From Candidatus Magasanikbacteria bacterium CG_4_10_14_0_2_um_filter_37_12 (GTDB lineage: Bacteria > Patescibacteriota > Patescibacteriia > Magasanikbacterales > UBA922), in the NCBI GenBank assembly GCA_002793015.1, contig PFPK01000046.1, forward strand, positions 1-39,261: 39,261 nt of DNA. Direction: 5' to 3'. Numbering within the stretch: the stretch's first letter is position 1; every line of letters starts with the position of its first letter. The notes beneath the pieces were generated by a model. That model did no database searches, was not told the origin of the DNA, and was given only the letters and a program-made list of their open reading frames with translations. Positions 4,131-35,621 of this stretch are shown here, piece by piece. Made by a program: the position numbers and the translations under genes.

Positions 4131-5303
4131 TTAACATCCACCAACCATACCAGGTGCTGTCGTTTCAGGTGTAAATCCAGATGATGATGCTTGTTTTTTT
4201 AGATCCGTAAGTTCTGCATCTGTTAGATTCATGGTGAGATACTTGATATCTGGAAGAAAATCAGATTTTTCACCAGCAAGTGCACTCGCCATACGTTGTT
4301 GCATTTGTATTGGGAAGTACAATCCTTTTTGTCGCATCAGCTCATAGGCAATCTCTGCGTTTGTCATGTTAGGATAATTTTTGATGAGATACGCAGCTGT
4401 TCCACGCATCGCAATCGAATGAGCGCAAGCACATGTTGGAGATCCGTCTTCACGAACCAATGTTTTTACACCACAACAAAATTCACACGTCACATACGGC
4501 TCAGTACCTATGGCAATATATCGCTCCATCTCTTCGTCAGTGAGCTGAATTGGCTTTGATCCTTGCTGTGGTGCCATAACGCCAAGTTTTGCGATAGACA
4601 CATTGATCGCATTCATATTCGACATATCAAGTCCAAGTTCTGATCCATAAAATGGCAATTCTCTTGGTGTCACAAGTGCCACAACATCCTTTGCAAAATC
4701 TCCTGTCATCAATACTCCCCCACTCATCGTTGATCCTGTTATGGCGTGACCTATACCAATGATCATAGATTGATTAAGAAGAAAAAGAAAAATAATAAGA
4801 GTTATTGTGAGATGATTAAATACATAATGCGACATACTTTTTTGTCCGTCTTCTTTGGGAGCAAACTTCTTCCATAGTAGTGTTATGCCAACGAGTAAAA
4901 GCAAGACTGAGAGAAGGCGAAGTCCCCAAAAATATGGTGATATAGCCATGACGGTTGCTGACAATCCGAACCATCCCAAGAAAAATATCGGACACACTGG
5001 ACAGAGTAATGTAAAAAGCGCAAGAATTCCTGATCCTCCCCCAACAGTACATGTTGTGGCTGTGTGTTGTCTTACGATGTGATAGAGCGCTGTACCAAAT
5101 CCAAATAGGATTGCGAATACTACAACAAATACAATATCCAATGTTGTCCGTTCTGTTAAAAACGAAATTTGGTACCCTACAATAGGAAGTGCCCACATGC
5201 CGTACAGAAATGTTTCTAAAAGAAGTGCTATCGCTGTTGTTCCAGCAAACCAGTACCAGAACGAATCATACGACAGGAGTCTCTGAATTTTGTTCATAGA
5301 CAA
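4131..5303 (-). CDS. Polytopic Cys-rich membrane protein with a soluble CxxCC/CxC domain, ending in ...APGMVGGC-COOH; function unknown
   Basis: The 390-aa ORF has several TM segments with intramembrane TCTVGGGSG and LLCPVCPIFF. A soluble part follows with YVTCEFCCGVKTLVREDGSPTCACAHS. The C-terminal tail is GFTPETTAPGMVGGC. Confidence 0.7.
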   Translation of the reverse strand: MSMNKIQRLLSYDSFWYWFAGTTAIALLLETFLYGMWALPIVGYQISFLTERTTLDIVFVVVFAILFGFGTALYHIVRQHTATTCTVGGGSGILALFTLLCPVCPIFFLGWFGLSATVMAISPYFWGLRLLSVLLLLVGITLLWKKFAPKEDGQKSMSHYVFNHLTITLIIFLFLLNQSMIIGIGHAITGSTMSGGVLMTGDFAKDVVALVTPRELPFYGSELGLDMSNMNAINVSIAKLGVMAPQQGSKPIQLTDEEMERYIAIGTEPYVTCEFCCGVKTLVREDGSPTCACAHSIAMRGTAAYLIKNYPNMTNAEIAYELMRQKGLYFPIQMQQRMASALAGEKSDFLPDIKYLTMNLTDAELTDLKKQASSSGFTPETTAPGMVGGC

Positions 5304-23869: not shown

Positions 23870-25042
23870 TTATTCTCCCTTTTTCACGAAAAATAAGGTT
23901 TCTCCCTGTCCTTCGAGTAGATTGGCAATTTCTTGGAAAACAATTGCAAAACGAGTATCCGTCATTTCCTGATTCTCGTCGGTATTGTTATGCAGACACC
24001 ACAGCTCGTCAGCTATGGCTTTGAGACTTTTGTTTGATTCATGACCATGGGGATTCACACAGTATGATCTAAATACCTTAATAAGTTCTATGGCAATAGT
24101 GTCTGCATCCTTTTTTTTCATGGACGGATTTTTGACCAGCTTGTTTGCTTTGTCCATCAATCTTGGCAAGGCTTCTTTCACCACTTCTATGTTTTCCATG
24201 TAGGAAAATATCTCAAAGAAAGCCACTCCGATATAGTAATTTGCCACTTCCAGGGATTTGCCACTGTGCAGACTTTCTGAGAGAGCATGGAGTACCGACA
24301 GTGCGCGTCGGTAAAATTTTTCTGCCACTTCGTTTTGCCCGGTGAGCATGGCGTCATTGATATCATACTTTATCGAGCCAATAAAAATTTTGTAGACAAT
24401 ATTTCCGATAATGACTGCACCAAAGAAAAATGATATGAGTTTCCACCAGATACGGGCCTTGTGAATGTCCGCTACTAATGGTTGCCAAAACGGAGCACCT
24501 AGAGAGAATACACTCAAGGTAAAGAGCAGACCAAGTGAAATCGCAAATGCTTCAAACAAATTTGAGGTTAATTCAAGACCAAACGCTTCAAATTTTTGTT
24601 TCATGTTTGCCAGTGAGATGGCAAACCATGCAGTACCCGCAACCATGGTGATCGGAATGAGCACGGAAACAATAATTGTCGTATCCAGAAAAAGGATGGG
24701 AAGGATCGCCAGCAGAGCATACCAGATGGTTTTTTTGAGCCCCGAAGCGTATTTCTTTTTGACAGAGTTCTCTGCTACGGTTCGCTCAAGAGATGAGAGT
24801 TCTATCTCAAACAGATTTTTGAGCACTCGGTTGGTGATGATTCTATAAAATACAGACATACAGTGGTGAATGAAAGATAAAAAAATAAACACACAATAAG
24901 AAATATTGTACCCATATTTTGTATGTTCGTCAACAAGCAATGGTAGCAATACTAAACATAAGAGCGAGGAATTGACCACGATAGGATAGATTATAAACAT
25001 TTTTGTTTCCATTATACCTATTAACACACTTGTTAAATTCAT
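23870..25042 (-). CDS. Hypothetical polytopic membrane protein with a C-terminal helical soluble domain
   Basis: The 390-aa ORF has about 6 to 7 hydrophobic segments followed by a roughly 170-aa helical region. I recognise no motif. The 3' two-thirds are visibly GC-richer than the neighbouring genes. Confidence 0.55.
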   Translation of the reverse strand: MNLTSVLIGIMETKMFIIYPIVVNSSLLCLVLLPLLVDEHTKYGYNISYCVFIFLSFIHHCMSVFYRIITNRVLKNLFEIELSSLERTVAENSVKKKYASGLKKTIWYALLAILPILFLDTTIIVSVLIPITMVAGTAWFAISLANMKQKFEAFGLELTSNLFEAFAISLGLLFTLSVFSLGAPFWQPLVADIHKARIWWKLISFFFGAVIIGNIVYKIFIGSIKYDINDAMLTGQNEVAEKFYRRALSVLHALSESLHSGKSLEVANYYIGVAFFEIFSYMENIEVVKEALPRLMDKANKLVKNPSMKKKDADTIAIELIKVFRSYCVNPHGHESNKSLKAIADELWCLHNNTDENQEMTDTRFAIVFQEIANLLEGQGETLFFVKKGE

Positions 25043-28014: not shown

Positions 28015-29427
28015 CTAGCGATTTTCACGTCGATAAGCATAAAGGCTGGTAAAAATTATAAAAATAATAAATGAACCTAAGGCAGAAAATTGTATAATGC
28101 GCTTGAGATTAACGCTATCTGCTTGTAGAGGATTCTGATCTTCACCGTCTACTTGCCCATCCTCATCTGTATCCGCCAATATTGGATTGGAGCCTTTGTC
28201 TATTTCTGTGCCATCGCTTAATCCATCACTGTCAGTATCTAACTTAAGTGGATCTGTACCAAATTGGACTTCTTCGATATCTTTAATATTATCTCCATCA
28301 TCATCGTCGTCCGCTTCATTACCGATACCGTCCAAATCTGTATCTATAGATTCTTTAGGATCGGTAGGAAAGATGTCCAAAAAATCGGATACTCCGTCAC
28401 CATCAGTATCTTGCTTTAAAGGATCTGAACCTTTTGTGATCTCTTCGCCATCTTTGAGACCATCGCCATCAGTGTCTGATTTTAGTGGGTCTGTGCCAAA
28501 TTCTTTCTCTTTGTTGTCCACCAGACCATCGCCATCAGTGTCTGATTTTGTTGGATCTGTGCCAGCATTCAATTCCTCCTGGTCAAAAATTCCGTCCCCG
28601 TCTGAATCATTTATTGTTGGATCTGTGCCCTTTTCTTTTTCTATTTTGTCGGTTAGACCATCGTCGTCAGTGTCTACTTTTAGCGGATCGCTACCAAAAT
28701 CCAATTCTTCTTGATCAGTAAGACCATCATTATCATCATCATTATCAGCGTTGTCCCCTACCCCATCGTTATCAAAGTCAGTCCACTCTTTACTATCTTT
28801 TGGAAAAAAATCTACGGTGTCATTATGTCCATCGCCATCTGTGTCAGATTTTAGTGGATTCAATCCTGCGTCAATTTCACTTTTGTCCAAGAGACCATCA
28901 CCATCTGTATCAACTTTTAGTGGATCCGTTCCTAATTCACTCTCTTTAGCATCACTTATTCCGTCATTATCGTCATCAGTGTCTTCCTTGTTACCAACAT
29001 CATCACCATCTGTATCAATATCAATATCAAAATCACGAGTAGCTTGATAATTAGCTAGTTGCTCTTGATTTATATCAAGCTTATTACCGCTATTATCCGT
29101 TACCTTGATATCAATCATTCTGGCTTCGATATTTTGTACTCCTTCTGGCAAAGTGTAATCAATAGATACTTGCTTGGCTTCTTCAAAAGGTAAATCAACA
29201 ATCTCTGCCGTGCCGATGTGGATACTGTTACTGAAGAATGTAACTTTGGCGGAAAAAAGAGGAAAATCATTATTGACCACCACTGTATAAATTTTCACTG
29301 TATCTCCAGCAAAGGCATCACTATTGGAAATATACAATCCTTTGTCAATCAAAAAATTGAAGCTCTCTGCTGACACAAATGTAGGTATAAATAAAACAAC
29401 AGCTATTATTAAAAATAATTTTGTCAT
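28015..29427 (-). CDS. Secreted, C-terminally membrane-anchored protein with an Ig/CARDB-like N-domain and about 15 thrombospondin type-3 (Ca2+-binding) repeats
   Basis: It has a signal peptide and repeated GTDPLK-x-DTDGDG-x-x-D units. A C-terminal TM (FSALGSFIIFIIFTSLYAY) is followed by RRENR. Confidence 0.8.
   Translation of the reverse strand: MTKLFLIIAVVLFIPTFVSAESFNFLIDKGLYISNSDAFAGDTVKIYTVVVNNDFPLFSAKVTFFSNSIHIGTAEIVDLPFEEAKQVSIDYTLPEGVQNIEARMIDIKVTDNSGNKLDINQEQLANYQATRDFDIDIDTDGDDVGNKEDTDDDNDGISDAKESELGTDPLKVDTDGDGLLDKSEIDAGLNPLKSDTDGDGHNDTVDFFPKDSKEWTDFDNDGVGDNADNDDDNDGLTDQEELDFGSDPLKVDTDDDGLTDKIEKEKGTDPTINDSDGDGIFDQEELNAGTDPTKSDTDGDGLVDNKEKEFGTDPLKSDTDGDGLKDGEEITKGSDPLKQDTDGDGVSDFLDIFPTDPKESIDTDLDGIGNEADDDDDGDNIKDIEEVQFGTDPLKLDTDSDGLSDGTEIDKGSNPILADTDEDGQVDGEDQNPLQADSVNLKRIIQFSALGSFIIFIIFTSLYAYRRENR
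28108..29025 (-). repeat. In-frame coding repeats (DxDxDG thrombospondin type-3 units)
   Basis: Degenerate repeats of about 36 to 70 nt, rich in GAT/GAC/GGT codons, run through this stretch. They create the spurious Ser/Pro-rich plus-strand ORFs at 28187..28714, 28485..28721 and 28751..29047. Confidence 0.75.
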
Positions 29428-32096: not shown

Positions 32097-35000
32097 TCAA
32101 ACCACAATATTCAAGATTCTGCCTTTCACGTAGATTACTTTCTTTGGCTCCTGTCCGCCTAGCCACTTTACGACATTTGGTTGGGCCAGTGCCATGGACT
32201 CCACTTCGTCATCAGTGGCATCAATAGAGATTACAATAGAAGCACGAACTTTTCCATTGACTTGTACAGCCATTGAAAGTTTGTCTCCTGTAAGCTTATC
32301 TTCATCATAAGCAGACCATGCTTCTAAGGAAATGGAATCCTTGTGTCCTAGAATACTCCAAAGCTCTTCAGAGATGTGCGGAGCAAATGGAGCAAGCAGT
32401 GTAACTAGTGACTGATAGCTAGTGAGTAAAACTTTTTCTTGTTTATAAAATTCATTAACTAGCTCCATTAATTTGGCAATAGCAGTATTGAATCCAAGCT
32501 TGGACAAATCATCACCAACTTTTTGAATAGTATGATGAAGCTTTCTGTCTAACTCAAGATCTAACTTAGCATTATCACTTAATCTATCCTGCAAATTCCA
32601 GACACGATCCAAAAATCTCTTAATCCCTTTTACACCATTTTCATCCCATGGTTTGTCTTCTTCCATTGGTCCCATGAACATCTCATACATGCGCATAGTG
32701 TCTGCCCCAAATTCATTGACAACATCTGTTGGATTGATGACGTTCTCCCAACGCTTGCTCATCTTGCGACCATCTGGACCAAGAATGAGACCTTGGTGGC
32801 GATGGACGGTAAATGGCTCATCAAAATCAATGTAGCCAGCGTCATATAATACTTTGGTGAAAAATCTTGCATATAGCAAGTGTCCATTGACATGTTCTGG
32901 TCCACCGAGATAGAAATCTACTGGCATCCATTTTTTCAATGCTTCTGGTGATGCGAATTCTTTTTCATTGTGCGGATCAAGATAGCGAAAAAAATACCAT
33001 GAGGAGCACATGAAGGTGTCTAATGTGTCTACTTCACGTTTCCAACCTTTACCATATTTTTCTTCCACCCCATCTTGAAAACTTGGCGAATACGTGAGCG
33101 GTGATTGACCTGTTGGTTTGAAATCTACGTCATCTGGTAAGATAACAGGGAGATCTGATTCCGGAAGTGGACGCAAATCAGGTCGGACTTCTCGCATAAT
33201 TTCATCCAAAAAAGATGAAAAAATATTATACCCATGTTCAATATCAAAATGTCCAGCATCTCGTTCAATTATTATCCGCGCTTCTGGTATGTATTTTTCA
33301 AAATACTTTTTTGTCGCATCGCATGGAATATAAGGATCGTTTGTAGAAAGATATATTACAATTTCACCTACATTTTTTCTTATTTTTTTAAAATCTAAAC
33401 AATCTTCTTTATCTCCAAAAAATGCTAGGGCAATTTCTTTTTCTGCATCTCCCCAGCCTTCTCTTCCAAATCCTATATACCAATCTTTTGTAGGTGTAGA
33501 AGGTGCTACTAAAACAAGTTTTCTGAACTCCATTGTCTGTGCAAGTGCTAATGCTATCCAACAGCTTAATGAGCGCGCCGTAACAACGGTGTTTGTTGTA
33601 TCTTTCGATAATTCTTTTTGTGTTGCTTCAAGCCAATCATTAAATTTTGGATGCTCTGGGTGTGGTAAAAGAGGAGTTATCGATACAATGTGTTTTTCTG
33701 CAAGTTCTTTACTAATCCATGGATGAAAATGAGACTGTGGATCACTCCCCCACGCATGTAAATTCAAAACAAAATCTGGTAATTCATCAAACTTTTGACT
33801 TTCGGACTTTATGGACTTTTGACTAGTGAGCATCGGAATTGGTGCTCCCCAAAATCTCTGACGAGATACAGACCAGTCGCGGAGTTTGTACTGTACTTTT
33901 CGCTTCCCATGACCATTTTTTTCAAGCCAGTCGATTATTGCTGTTTTTGCTTCTTCTGTTGTGAGGCCGTTGAGGAAGTCGGAGTTGATGGTAATACCGG
34001 GTTCTGATACACATTCGTCATATCCGTCAAAATAGTATTTAACAAGAAGCCCTTCACCAGTATCATGCGGATAGACGTTGGATGTTTTGTTTCGCTCAAA
34101 TGCAGAAACAGCTTCTTCACGTGTCATCCATATATATTCGTAGATATCTTTGTCCTCGCCATATAACGCTACTTTTTCCTCATTTTTAAGTTGCACTGAA
34201 AATATTTTCCGTATGTAATGTTTTAGTTCTTTGGATTTTGTAGTCAAAAAATGCACCCCAACCTGTCCTTTGCATTCACCGGGCATATTATTTATATATC
34301 CTGTTTCCTCGGCAAATTCTCTTTTAAGTGTTTCATAATCTGTTTCATTTTCCTCTTGTGTACCACCAGGTAAACGATACAGATCATTCTTCTTTTCATA
34401 CATAACCAGCACCTTACCATCTCTTTCCAACAATCCGTAAACTCCAACACTCTTTTCTTCTCCTTCTAGCGGATCTCCAATATCTTTTGCCACTACCTCC
34501 CGAATCGGCAACCCAAACTTCTTCGCAAACTCAAAATCCCGTTCATCATGTGCAGGCACTGCCATAATAGCACCAGTGCCGTAGGTCGCAATAACATAGT
34601 CTGCAATCCAAATAGGAATCTCTTCATCATTGGCAGGATTCACCGCTTTGACACCTTTCAATTCAACTCCAGTTTTATCTTTTTCAATCTGCCGATCCAG
34701 ATCTGTTTTCTTTGATGTTTCTTCAATATATTTTTCCACTTCATCCCAGTTTGTAATATTATCTTTCAAATCCTGTACATACTGCCCCTCTGGTGCAAGC
34801 ACCATATATGTCGCACCAAAAAGTGTGTCCGGACGAGTCGTAAACACTTCAATCACATTTCGTAATTTCGTACTTTTCGTATTTCGTATATCAGCACTTT
34901 CACCAACTTCATAAACATTAAACTGTATCAATGCCCCTTCAGACCGCCCTATCCAATCCTTCTGTCTCTTGATGGTCTCGGCTGGCCAATCAATCCTGTC

Positions 35001-35621
35001 TAGGCCTTCAAGAAGTTTATCGGCATAATCAGTAATTTTTAAATACCATTGTTCCATTTCTTTTTGGATGACAACAGTATCACAACGTTCACAATGTCCG
35101 TCTACTACTTGGGCATTGGCTAGCACTGTCTTACAGCTCTCGCACCAATTGACTGCTTGCTTCTTGCGATAAGCCAAACCACGCTCGTACATGAGAAGAA
35201 AAAACCATTGCGTAAATTTGTAATATCCAGGATCGCTTGACCGTACAAACCGATCCCAGTCTACAGATACTCCCAGAGCTTTCACTTGTGAGACAAAATT
35301 TTCGGTAGTCTTATCAATAGTTTCTTGTGGATGGACATTAGTCTTGATCGCATAATTTTCTGCAGGAAGTCCAAAAGAATCAAGTCCAAAGACTTGCAGG
35401 ACTTTCTTGCCTTTCATTCTTTGATAACGAGCATAGATATCGCAAGCAGTGTACACTTCGGCATGACCAACATGCAGACCACTGCCAGATGGATACGGAA
35501 GCTGTGGCAAAATGTAGCACTTGTTTTCTGGCGTGACATCTTCGGGCGTAGCAAAAGTCTTGTGTTCTTCCCAATGTTTTTGCCACTTAGCTTCAATTAA
35601 TTTTGGATTATAATTTTCCAT
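32097..35621 (-). CDS. leuS: Leucyl-tRNA synthetase with two inserted enzyme domains (Nudix; alpha/beta-hydrolase)
   Basis: The landmarks appear in canonical order: HVGH (aa 50-53), CESC..CERC Zn module, TTRPDT, GTGAIMAVPAHDERD, YKLRDWSVSRQRFWGAPIPM, LPVILPDD, DTFMCSSWYF and KMSKR (aa 953-957). The total length is 1174 aa. Confidence 0.9.
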   Translation of the reverse strand: MENYNPKLIEAKWQKHWEEHKTFATPEDVTPENKCYILPQLPYPSGSGLHVGHAEVYTACDIYARYQRMKGKKVLQVFGLDSFGLPAENYAIKTNVHPQETIDKTTENFVSQVKALGVSVDWDRFVRSSDPGYYKFTQWFFLLMYERGLAYRKKQAVNWCESCKTVLANAQVVDGHCERCDTVVIQKEMEQWYLKITDYADKLLEGLDRIDWPAETIKRQKDWIGRSEGALIQFNVYEVGESADIRNTKSTKLRNVIEVFTTRPDTLFGATYMVLAPEGQYVQDLKDNITNWDEVEKYIEETSKKTDLDRQIEKDKTGVELKGVKAVNPANDEEIPIWIADYVIATYGTGAIMAVPAHDERDFEFAKKFGLPIREVVAKDIGDPLEGEEKSVGVYGLLERDGKVLVMYEKKNDLYRLPGGTQEENETDYETLKREFAEETGYINNMPGECKGQVGVHFLTTKSKELKHYIRKIFSVQLKNEEKVALYGEDKDIYEYIWMTREEAVSAFERNKTSNVYPHDTGEGLLVKYYFDGYDECVSEPGITINSDFLNGLTTEEAKTAIIDWLEKNGHGKRKVQYKLRDWSVSRQRFWGAPIPMLTSQKSIKSESQKFDELPDFVLNLHAWGSDPQSHFHPWISKELAEKHIVSITPLLPHPEHPKFNDWLEATQKELSKDTTNTVVTARSLSCWIALALAQTMEFRKLVLVAPSTPTKDWYIGFGREGWGDAEKEIALAFFGDKEDCLDFKKIRKNVGEIVIYLSTNDPYIPCDATKKYFEKYIPEARIIIERDAGHFDIEHGYNIFSSFLDEIMREVRPDLRPLPESDLPVILPDDVDFKPTGQSPLTYSPSFQDGVEEKYGKGWKREVDTLDTFMCSSWYFFRYLDPHNEKEFASPEALKKWMPVDFYLGGPEHVNGHLLYARFFTKVLYDAGYIDFDEPFTVHRHQGLILGPDGRKMSKRWENVINPTDVVNEFGADTMRMYEMFMGPMEEDKPWDENGVKGIKRFLDRVWNLQDRLSDNAKLDLELDRKLHHTIQKVGDDLSKLGFNTAIAKLMELVNEFYKQEKVLLTSYQSLVTLLAPFAPHISEELWSILGHKDSISLEAWSAYDEDKLTGDKLSMAVQVNGKVRASIVISIDATDDEVESMALAQPNVVKWLGGQEPKKVIYVKGRILNIVV

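Follow-up and report, generated by a model that had tools for sequence, protein, structure and literature searches.

Predicted Nudix and serine hydrolase domains nested in a Patescibacteria leucyl-tRNA synthetase and exchanged among its relatives

Aminoacyl-tRNA synthetases (aaRS) are among the most conserved enzymes of life, and lineage-specific additions to them are usually RNA-binding or editing modules. Canonical leucyl-tRNA synthetase (LeuRS), as solved for E. coli (4AQ7/4ARC), T. thermophilus (1H3N/2BYT), and N. gonorrhoeae (7NU3), consists of a Rossmann core, the ZN1/CP1 hairpin, the CP1 domain after the zinc knuckle, and the anticodon-binding and C-terminal domains, in this order. The leuS gene described here lies on a 39,261-nucleotide stretch of DNA from Candidatus Magasanikbacteria bacterium CG_4_10_14_0_2_um_filter_37_12 (GenBank assembly GCA_002793015.1, contig PFPK01000046.1, positions 1 to 39,261), the whole of which is called the window. 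Its 1174-amino-acid (aa) product has the catalytic and editing motifs and the domain order of canonical LeuRS, but it has ~375 extra residues and two foreign enzyme domains, and it lacks the leucine-specific domain. The protein is a genuine LeuRS whose nested enzyme cassettes, here a Nudix domain (insert 1) and a YdeN/RBBP9-type serine hydrolase (insert 2), belong to a set that is shuffled by recombination and had not been described before.

Each insert resembles described enzymes. YdeN of B. subtilis (1UXO) and human RBBP9 (2QS9/7OEX) have the same minimal alpha/beta-hydrolase fold as insert 2 (PF06821) and share its triad motifs, xxSxG, S-T-x-D-P-[YF]-[IL]-P, and G-H-F, whereas insert 2 is embedded in a synthetase, has Arg for His before the nucleophile, and contains an extra segment of 15-20 aa. 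Free-standing Nudix proteins (E. faecalis 2AZW, A. aeolicus 3I7U, B. bacteriovorus RppH 3EES, P. aerophilum 1JRK) have the same box and alpha/beta/alpha fold as insert 1, which differs from them in sitting within another domain and in having neither a subfamily-specific motif nor a close orthologue. The nearest catalogued precedent for a class Ia synthetase with a foreign enzyme is the NCBIfam model NF040702, ‘isoleucine--tRNA ligase, N-acetyltransferase domain-containing’; compared by model name, it concerns another synthetase and another domain, and no cassette polymorphism is described for it. AlaX, YbaK/ProX, D-Tyr-tRNA deacylase, and the N-terminal editing domain of archaeal ThrRS are synthetase-associated editing factors and would be analogues if the hydrolase deacylates. 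To our knowledge, the known appended or free-standing editing factors have unrelated folds and mechanisms, and none is a Ser-Asp-His alpha/beta-hydrolase. Inteins likewise lie in-frame in conserved sites of essential proteins and are patchy among close relatives, but the LeuRS inserts have no splicing junction and no Hint or homing-endonuclease domain; they are ordinary enzymes retained in the mature protein.

The full-text literature searched, in which most subscription journals are not covered, yields no account of Nudix or alpha/beta-hydrolase domains inserted in LeuRS or ValRS, of the insertion hot spots, or of cassette exchange. An initial sequence-only reading of this DNA, which had picked out the gene and knew of no LeuRS with this architecture, was right in that respect, though databases already hold such proteins under automatic names, and the architecture is common in Patescibacteria. 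These names include ‘leucyl-tRNA synthetase/predicted alpha/beta hydrolase family esterase’, ‘alpha/beta fold hydrolase’, and ‘class I tRNA ligase family protein’. The annotation problem is systematic, as many cassette LeuRS bear one of the latter two names.

The borders of both inserts were set by alignment of the 120 best relatives (Table 1). The two in-frame blocks of the sequence-only reading (about aa 385-535 and aa 598-815) stand, with slightly wider limits. Its estimate of roughly 300 additional aa was too low: the protein is ~375-390 aa longer than its insert-free relatives, which have 785-810 aa. The two insert families that this reading anticipated, NUDIX (PF00293) and Ser_hydrolase (PF06821), are those that Pfam returns.

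Insert 1 is a Nudix domain nested inside CP1. PF00293 (gathering threshold 21.1) matches aa 390-511 and scores 43 bits on the whole protein and 48 on the insert alone (E-values 1.6e-12 to 4.6e-11). The Nudix box, GTQEENETDYETLKREFAEETGY, satisfies GX5EX7REUXEEXGU at every position (G420-x5-E426-x7-R434-E435-F-A-E438-E439-T-G441-Y442), exactly as first read, and 44 of the 47 homologous inserts have a box that meets the strict pattern. The editing-domain model PF13603 matches aa 221-383, which correspond to profile positions 1-146 of 185 (E 6.4e-54), and is broken there by the insert; the equivalent place in T. thermophilus LeuRS is at residues ~369-375. Insert 1 therefore lies within CP1 rather than beyond its end, so the sequence-only reading was correct about a Nudix block ahead of PGITINS and mistaken in placing it after the editing domain. 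A 2026 survey of domain insertions gives LeuRS editing domains (PF13603) as having ‘zero instances of host function’ (PMC13114784); with a Nudix domain nested in CP1, the editing domain is itself a host, an exception to this statement.

Structure prediction agrees with this assignment. AlphaFold2 (AF2) gives the insert 1 block a predicted local distance difference test score (pLDDT) of 79-95, mostly 87-95, and Foldseek matches it to many Nudix structures with probability 1.00, among them 2azw (target-normalised TM, TMt, 0.75), the Ap4A hydrolase 3i7u (0.70), and BdRppH (0.70), as well as ADPRase and CTPase. The neighbours from the PDB and Foldseek span several specificities (MutT-like, RppH, ADPRase, CTPase, Ap4Aase), all equally weak. 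In NCBIfam, every match to a Nudix equivalog model falls far below its cutoff, and no conserved downstream specificity residue was seen in the Nudix inserts. A word-index homologue search with the Nudix insert alone gave no match, which is ascribed to a limitation of the word index.

Insert 2 takes the place of the tip of a 15-aa beta-hairpin, whose insert-free form reads ML-YDEKGELHPVPEED-LPVILP. In T. thermophilus LeuRS this hairpin bears Cys439 and Cys442; the Zn2 cysteines are missing in the window LeuRS. The hairpin would correspond to the part of the core named ‘Zn2’ in N. gonorrhoeae LeuRS (PMC9424281), and hence to a ‘Zn2/CP3’ region. PF06821 (threshold 22) matches aa 621-802 at 51 and 55 bits (E 9e-15 to 2.3e-13). 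By sequence, only two proteins of solved structure are significantly related to insert 2, YdeN of B. subtilis (1uxo, E 2.9e-6) and human RBBP9 (2qs9/7oex, E 4e-4), with identities of 19-23%. When the excised segment is searched with Foldseek, ranks 1-5, 7, and 8 are 1uxo, 9fcr, 7oex, and 2qs9, with TMt 0.86 and a root-mean-square deviation (rmsd) of 2.2 A for YdeN and TMt 0.80-0.84 for RBBP9 (overall rmsd 2.2-2.9 A); the top 50 contain no alpha/beta-hydrolases other than YdeN/RBBP9. Pfam, alignment to the PDB, and Foldseek thus agree with the YdeN/RBBP9-like fold and the triad of Ser684, Asp762, and His791 that had been proposed from the sequence.

The hydrolase has a distinctive nucleophile elbow. 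The canonical G-H-S-x-G is not present; the query has A-R-S-L-S, with Arg for His, and retains the small-x-Ser-x-small geometry. Because (G/A)-R-S-L-(G/S) is an invariant signature of the subtype to which insert 2 belongs (type A, described below), ARSLSC is typical rather than degenerate. Type-A hydrolases also have their extra segment of 15-20 aa after the strand LVLVAP, and Ser, Asp, and His of the triad are each conserved in 23 of 23 type-A inserts. RBBP9 has been shown experimentally to be a serine aminopeptidase that cleaves alpha-aminoacyl amides and esters and needs a free alpha-amine (PMC8866121). The inserts do not conserve the residues that bind this amine in RBBP9, Glu108, Tyr99, and Ser76 (equivalents E/K/D/S, T/S, and L, respectively), and a transfer of RBBP9 substrate specificity to insert 2 is rejected for this reason. 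On alignment, insert 2 is a member of the family and not an RBBP9 orthologue.

Table 1. Features of the leuS gene in the window, in order of residues. Positions are those of the window.
Feature	Residues	Positions	Strand	Basis or remark
leuS open reading frame, bacterial-type LeuRS, housekeeping copy hosting both inserts	1174 aa	32097..35621	-	TIGR00396
HIGH signature HVGH of synthetic site	50-53	35463..35474	-	H50, G52, H53 invariant in 70 relatives
ZN1/CP1-hairpin zinc knuckle	C160, C163, C177, C180	35082..35144	-	aligns to T. thermophilus LeuRS ZN region
CP1 editing domain, N-terminal four-fifths	221-377	34491..34961	-	PF13603
Insert 1 (site 1), Nudix hydrolase domain	378-540	34002..34490	-	PF00293, AF2, Foldseek
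Nudix box	G420...Y442	34296..34364	-	GX5EX7REUXEEXGU
CP1 C-terminal end, return strand, and RDWSVSRQRFWGAPIPM core segment, between inserts	541-597	33831..34001	-	alignment
Insert 2 (site 2), YdeN/RBBP9-type minimal alpha/beta serine hydrolase, type A	598-823	33153..33830	-	PF06821
Nucleophile elbow A-R-S-L-S	S684	33564..33578	-	aligns to RBBP9 Ser75, YdeN AHSLGC motif
Catalytic Asp in STNDPYIP	D762	33336..33338	-	aligns to RBBP9 Asp138 in STDDPFLP
Catalytic His in DAGHFD	H791	33249..33251	-	aligns to RBBP9 His165 in DCGHF
KMSKS signature KMSKR	953-957	32751..32765	-	preceded by short GPDGR linker
Anticodon-binding and C-terminal tRNA-binding domains		32100..32555	-	PF08264 at aa 1023-1136

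The host of these domains is, by its sequence, an ordinary essential LeuRS in which the synthetic site, the zinc knuckle, the CP1 editing site, and the tRNA-binding domains are intact. The whole open reading frame scores 911.9 bits against the NCBIfam equivalog model leuS_bact (TIGR00396), with a cutoff of 548.4, and all the landmarks first read from it are where they had been placed. HIGH and KMSKS are invariant or nearly so in 70 relatives. The CP1 editing motifs TTRPDT (aa 261-266) and AHDERD (aa 357-362) are intact; D359, R361, and D362 are invariant in the same relatives, and T261-T266 are at least 90% conserved. The role of the ZN1/CP1-hairpin zinc domain is covered elsewhere (PMC13454842). 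Four anchors frame the inserts: AHDERD...REVV (aa 357-377), PGITINS (aa 541-547), WGAPIPM (aa 591-597), and LPVILP (aa 824-829). The linker between the inserts aligns to T. thermophilus LeuRS residues 375-438 and has a constant 43 aa between anchors in 120 relatives.

The leucine-specific domain is absent. Alignment to 1H3N skips T. thermophilus residues 580-637, with GPDGR in their place; the anticodon-binding and C-terminal region aligns to residues 638-876. All 120 relatives, insert-free ones included, likewise have no leucine-specific domain. This LeuRS is thus minimal at one classical insertion site and expanded at others. LeuRS without this domain is known and active, as it is missing in the enzymes of B. 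subtilis and M. mobile (PMC3643597). The short G-x-D-x linker ahead of KMSKS (ILGPDGR, aa 946-952, window 32766..32786) resembles the GKDG tetrapeptide of Mycoplasma mobile LeuRS.

AF2 was run on an alignment of 70 sequences, and the Nudix-linker-hydrolase segment was also modelled in excised form and searched against the PDB. For the full protein, the mean pLDDT is 86.6 and the predicted TM score (pTM) 0.80; most of either insert lies at pLDDT 87-96. Superposition of the core on the solved LeuRS of E. coli, T. thermophilus, and N. gonorrhoeae gives a target-normalised TM of 0.77-0.83, and in these superpositions the inserts are not covered by any solved LeuRS. Both inserts lie in surface loops, that of the Nudix domain being a peripheral loop of CP1. 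Each insert exits and re-enters the host at a single point, folds independently (pLDDT ~90), and retains its catalytic residues. On sequence and model, both inserts are independently folding domains with complete predicted catalytic machinery.

That the inserts stem from chimeric assembly, from gene fusion by frameshift, from an intein, or from the insertion of a mobile element is effectively refuted. Four contigs, which belong to ENA and JGI assemblies independent of each other, encode an identical 1174-aa protein, and dozens of diverged relatives (50-65% identical) share the same in-frame architecture; a chimera is rejected on both grounds. An intein or mobile element is rejected because there are no junction residues (HN[CST] occurs nowhere in the 1174 aa), Pfam yields no Hint, intein, or homing-endonuclease match, and no direct or inverted repeats flank the inserts. 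The absence of intein-like termini, and with it the presence of both blocks in the mature enzyme, had been noted at the outset. What speaks for an artefact is the GC content at third codon positions (GC3), which at 0.28 in the Nudix insert and 0.20 in the hydrolase insert is below that of the LeuRS core (0.35-0.46). Compared with the other window genes (0.31 +/- 0.04), the core rather than the inserts is the high-GC3 outlier; with regard to a foreign origin, the composition of the inserts is within or near the window-gene range. The AF2 model, moreover, is confident and continuous.

Selection on the inserts was assessed through omega, calculated pairwise by the Nei-Gojobori method, with synonymous divergence (dS) partly saturated in one pair. 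In the pair P0061/P0076, omega is 0.051 for the Nudix domain and 0.050-0.058 for the core; in P0030/P0034, it is 0.18 for the Nudix domain, 0.18 for the type-B hydrolase, and 0.10-0.13 for the core; and in P0062/P0068, the type-A hydrolase has 0.19. Core omega is 0.03-0.13 over the compared pairs. The low values of the cassettes (0.05-0.19) indicate that the inserts are maintained by purifying selection.

Among relatives, the inserts behave as interchangeable units. In the 120 aligned relatives, all LeuRS segments are length-invariant apart from three spots: site 0, just after DWIGRSEGA at the start of CP1; site 1, between ...REVV (aa 377) and PGITINS (aa 541); and site 2, between WGAPIPM (aa 597) and LPVILP (aa 824). 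Site 2 has a length of either 15-16 aa or 193-245 aa. The 115 full-length relatives, drawn from a list of best matches that is biased towards relatives of the query, fall into hydrolase only (30), no insert (29), Nudix plus hydrolase (22), Nudix only (21), and other combinations with methyltransferase, unknown, or site-0 modules (13). One or both inserts were thus found in many related LeuRS, as the sequence-only reading had thought worth checking. The 22 co-occurrences of Nudix and hydrolase compare with ~23 expected under independence, so the two inserts assort independently.

The same sites accept unrelated enzymes. At site 1, the Nudix domain is replaced by an S-adenosylmethionine (SAM)-dependent methyltransferase in P0015, P0097, and P0101, by a HAD phosphatase in P0067, by the hydrolase itself in P0192, P0244, and P0203, and by modules of unknown kind (at least two, of 80-130 aa). 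Site 0 contains Ham1/ITPase in P0085, P0153, and P0203, a GNAT domain in P0260, and one or two hydrolases in P0037 and P0134. Site 2 holds three hydrolase subtypes with a mutual identity of only ~23%: type A (‘LHAWGS...GRSLG’, the query), type B (‘FIHGY...HSLGG’), and type C. Proteins with three inserts (P0085, P0251) reach 1342-1344 aa. No Pfam match was obtained for the site-1 modules of P0032, P0082, P0085, P0086, and P0088 (123-130 aa) or of P0012, P0099, and P0116 (79-92 aa), nor for the site-0 modules of P0190 and P0251 (~190-230 aa); embedded in LeuRS, they may be additional domains with an enzymatic or binding role. Compared in this way, the window LeuRS is one combination from a cassette system of Patescibacteria class Ia synthetases. 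The window protein also has, at aa 236-252 (VYEVGESADIRNTKSTK, 34866..34916), an extra loop of ~14 aa exactly at site 0 of CP1, poorly predicted at aa 242-248 (pLDDT <50), which may be a cassette remnant or seed.

Cassettes turn over while the core stays nearly constant. In 47 pairs, both core halves share at least 80% identity; 24 of these pairs are discordant for the presence of an insert, and in 7 the cassettes are of one class but unrelated. P0006, with Nudix plus hydrolase, and P0039, with neither, have N-terminal cores that are 92% identical. P0010 and P0013 have cores 91% and 88% identical, with 30% identity between their Nudix domains and 28% between their hydrolases; in P0031 and P0034, the Nudix domains are 33% identical and the hydrolases 82%. 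On this comparative evidence, the cassettes are interchangeable and individually dispensable.

The leuS alleles P0019 (contig L088) and P0027 (L089), which come from different samples, form a recombination mosaic in an essential gene. Their DNA identity is 97-100% over aa 1-300 (100% in 9 of 10 windows of comparison), 92-96% over aa 301-360, 60-63% over aa 361-433, 94% over aa 434-463, 41-59% over aa 464-691 (a type C versus a type B hydrolase), 84-93% over aa 692-871, and 99-100% over aa 872-1021. The tract of low identity (41-60%) that holds the hydrolase spans ~1 kb, between ends (aa 1-300 and ~930-1020) that are nearly or fully identical. Identity changes by degrees at the borders and well into the core, which argues against site-specific insertion and for homologous recombination with a leuS allele that had diverged. 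The pattern points to homologous recombination between leuS alleles as the process by which cassettes are added, removed, and replaced. A neighbour-joining (NJ) tree of core LeuRS is star-like, and Fitch counts of 28 and 24 state changes were not relied on; they were replaced by the pairwise region-by-region comparison. The NJ tree of the hydrolase domain, with its 25-30% identity and weak topology, is no more than suggestive of several independent captures.

The genomic context of leuS is conserved with and without inserts. In the window, the gene order is thioredoxin - glutamate dehydrogenase - (inositol phosphatase) - leuS - comEC - ... - metallo-beta-lactamase, and the order thioredoxin, glutamate dehydrogenase, leuS, comEC, metallo-beta-lactamase is common to the window, the double-insert relative P0021, and the insert-free P0070, an 809-aa LeuRS found on >20 contigs. 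This equal synteny indicates that the leuS copies are orthologous housekeeping genes and not extra paralogues. In two relatives, a free-standing methyltransferase of ~200 aa lies between comEC and the metallo-beta-lactamase gene (L090 7135..7734, L092 8393..9031); it is missing at the equivalent place in the window, between 30367 and 30445. Local capture of this neighbouring gene into leuS was considered and rejected, its identity to the methyltransferase cassette inside some LeuRS being only 25%. In two relatives, toxin-antitoxin genes (MazE-like, PemK-like) adjoin leuS (L084 3240..3305, L088 943..1335).

The named relatives are Magasanikbacteria, Nomurabacteria, Dojkabacteria, Roizmanbacteria, and ‘Patescibacteria group’ metagenome-assembled genomes (MAGs). 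GTDB species representatives were also scanned with the insert-bearing segment, which matched 581 LeuRS loci via the conserved core linker. Among the best 80 of these, matches running well into the insert regions have Patescibacteria-type names (Magasanikbacteria, Saccharibacteria, Dojkabacteria, Peribacteria, Parcubacteria), and some insert-matching MAGs are labelled generically (‘uncultured Gammaproteobacteria’, ‘Woesearchaeota’); Kangiella, Desulfovibrio, Pyrinomonadaceae, Clostridia, and others match in the linker only. Contigs L003, L006, L008, L019, and that of P0192 carry Patescibacteria-type LeuRS and are deposited under unrelated names such as ‘uncultured Gammaproteobacteria bacterium’, ‘Woesearchaeota archaeon’, and ‘Nanohaloarchaeota archaeon’; their labels or binning look unreliable.

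The hydrolase also occurs outside LeuRS. A search of 1.84 billion cluster representatives with the hydrolase insert gave 786 relatives at E <=1e-3. Most of the long matches are LeuRS; after the LeuRS-embedded ones come free-standing proteins of ~180-215 aa with 27-43% identity, one of them a ‘serine hydrolase family protein’ from a Moranbacteria MAG. Free-standing relatives have an Arg-Ser elbow in 3 of 121 cases and His-Ser in 105 of 121. The hydrolase is fused to adenylate kinase (P0221), to ribosomal protein L22 (P0146), to FtsY together with a histidine phosphatase (P0188), and is found in a ValRS (P0138). A follow-up of 120 listed Patescibacteria ValRS (P0138, P0274-P0392) found it in 19, which have 1055-1102 aa compared with a median of 921 aa, and found a histidine phosphatase (PF00300) in its stead in ~7. 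One ValRS, P0291, has both. In ValRS the hydrolase lies between CISRQxWxGHxIPVWY... and ...DTLDTWFSSG, a hairpin equivalent to LeuRS site 2, and the copies are mostly type-A-like (LLHAWGS, GRSLG, DPYI, HF), with a few type-B-like.

What the passengers do can be approached through these comparative patterns. The reading preferred here, with some reserve, takes the two domains for autonomous accessory enzymes, active and tethered to an otherwise normal LeuRS. They would act independently of leucylation as small-molecule housekeeping or ‘house-cleaning’ enzymes and would not constitute a new LeuRS proofreading step. A nucleoside-diphosphate-X compound would be the substrate of the Nudix domain, and a small-molecule ester or amide that of the hydrolase, and both enzymes would ride at loops tolerant of whole-domain insertion. 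Fusion to a constitutive essential protein would guarantee expression and inheritance of the passenger in a tiny, regulator-poor cell. Nudix, Ham1, HAD, and histidine phosphatase are classical nucleotide ‘house-cleaning’ families. This reading is favoured because unrelated modules share sites, because Nudix and hydrolase assort independently and are absent from near-identical LeuRS, because CP1 is intact, and because the hydrolase has non-synthetase hosts. Several observations weigh against it and could indicate a link to aminoacylation chemistry. The hydrolase occupies a homologous hairpin in two paralogous synthetases, and its multidomain occurrences comprise 83 LeuRS insert instances and 19 ValRS versus a handful of other hosts; the Arg-Ser elbow subtype appears almost confined to aaRS-embedded copies; and RBBP9, the only characterised family member, cleaves substrates that are chemically close to aminoacyl-tRNA. 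These observations also speak for the main rival, the rather unlikely alternative, raised in the sequence-only reading as Ap4A hydrolysis and additional proofreading, that the inserts are coupled to aminoacylation, with the serine hydrolase as a cis-tethered alpha-aminoacyl esterase and the Nudix domain in by-product clearance. The hydrolase would then strip tRNA of wrong amino acids, or break down non-cognate aminoacyl-adenylates or esters after their release, as a third quality-control site in class Ia synthetases, and the Nudix domain would clear Ap4A/Ap3A or other activation by-products. Such coupling would suit the free alpha-amine required by RBBP9 in its aminopeptidase activity, and the hairpin by the SRQxWG motif belongs, in LeuRS and ValRS alike, to synthetases that edit aliphatic amino acids. 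The majority of multidomain proteins with the hydrolase being class Ia aaRS, the near aaRS-specificity of the G-R-S-L-G subtype, the Ap4A hydrolase among the closest Nudix structures, and the strong purifying selection on the inserts point the same way. Valacyclovir is the valyl ester of a nucleoside analogue, and the title of one reference calls RBBP9 a valacyclovir-activating enzyme. However, the CP1 editing residues are fully conserved, which leaves no lost function to replace, and the alpha-amine ligands of RBBP9 are not conserved. The hydrolase also sits at LeuRS sites 0 and 1 and on adenylate kinase, L22, and FtsY, so it does not depend on a fixed geometry; site 1 has methyltransferase, HAD, and unknown modules in place of Nudix; inserts are missing from LeuRS with ~90% identical cores and assort independently; and the Nudix resemblance to Ap4Aase is as weak as that to the other specificities.

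Two further readings have less in their favour than either independent passengers or coupling. It is improbable that the cassettes are countermeasures tethered to their target, inactivating aminoacyl-adenylate-mimicking inhibitors or other toxic analogues at LeuRS and ValRS, and just as improbable that the fast cassette swapping is the trace left by a chemical arms race in which the episymbionts face their hosts or neighbours. The dynamics do resemble those of conflict loci, with polymorphism of presence and type between LeuRS whose flanks are 90-100% identical, and the many enzyme families that alternate at the same sites typically modify or cleave small xenobiotics. Immunity to microcin C, an aminoacyl-adenylate mimic, depends on a GNAT (MccE) and a serine hydrolase (MccF). 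The NCBIfam model for IleRS with a GNAT domain is typed ‘exception’, like MupA and MupB, and natural Leu-AMP mimics that target LeuRS are on record (agrocin 84/TM84; PMC5059758). Against such a role, the hydrolase insert has no match in NCBIfam at E <=1, omega indicates conservative rather than diversifying selection, Ham1, HAD, and histidine phosphatase are a better fit to nucleotide house-cleaning, and fusions to adenylate kinase are at odds with the logic of target protection. It is very improbable that the inserts are non-catalytic pseudo-enzymes kept for structure, tRNA binding, regulation, or protein interaction. The leucine-specific domain, which normally aids tRNA binding, is missing, so a substitute surface is conceivable, and type A has Arg in place of the pre-nucleophile His as well as its extra segment. 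Yet the family-defining catalytic residues are kept (the Nudix box in 44 of 47 inserts, Ser/Asp/His in 23 of 23), which is unexpected for pseudo-enzymes; LeuRS without the leucine-specific domain is active, and the insert-free relatives are likewise without it.

An essential class Ia synthetase thus serves as the chassis for unrelated small-molecule enzymes at three hot spots, and the modules are swapped by recombination while the synthetase core barely changes, which is unexpected. If the passengers are independent, this would be a natural example of ultra-small, regulator-poor cells bundling accessory functions onto essential proteins, and the hot spots would map LeuRS and ValRS loops that tolerate whole-domain insertion, of use in engineering. 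Coupling to aminoacylation, on the other hand, would give class Ia synthetases a third hydrolytic site, for quality control or self-protection. Either way, the poorly understood bacterial YdeN family would acquire its first functional context.

The remaining genes of the window are ordinary and include a P-type ATPase, BipA, a Mur ligase, a peptidyl-prolyl isomerase (PPIase), a phospholipase D (PLD), and a radical SAM protein. Two open reading frames of 390 aa (4131..5303 and 23870..25042, both on the reverse strand) have no Pfam match at E <=1e-5. A 470-aa protein encoded on the same strand at 28015..29427 contains four bacterial thrombospondin type-3 repeats (PF18884, E 3e-42) and is, from its repeats, probably a calcium-binding surface protein.

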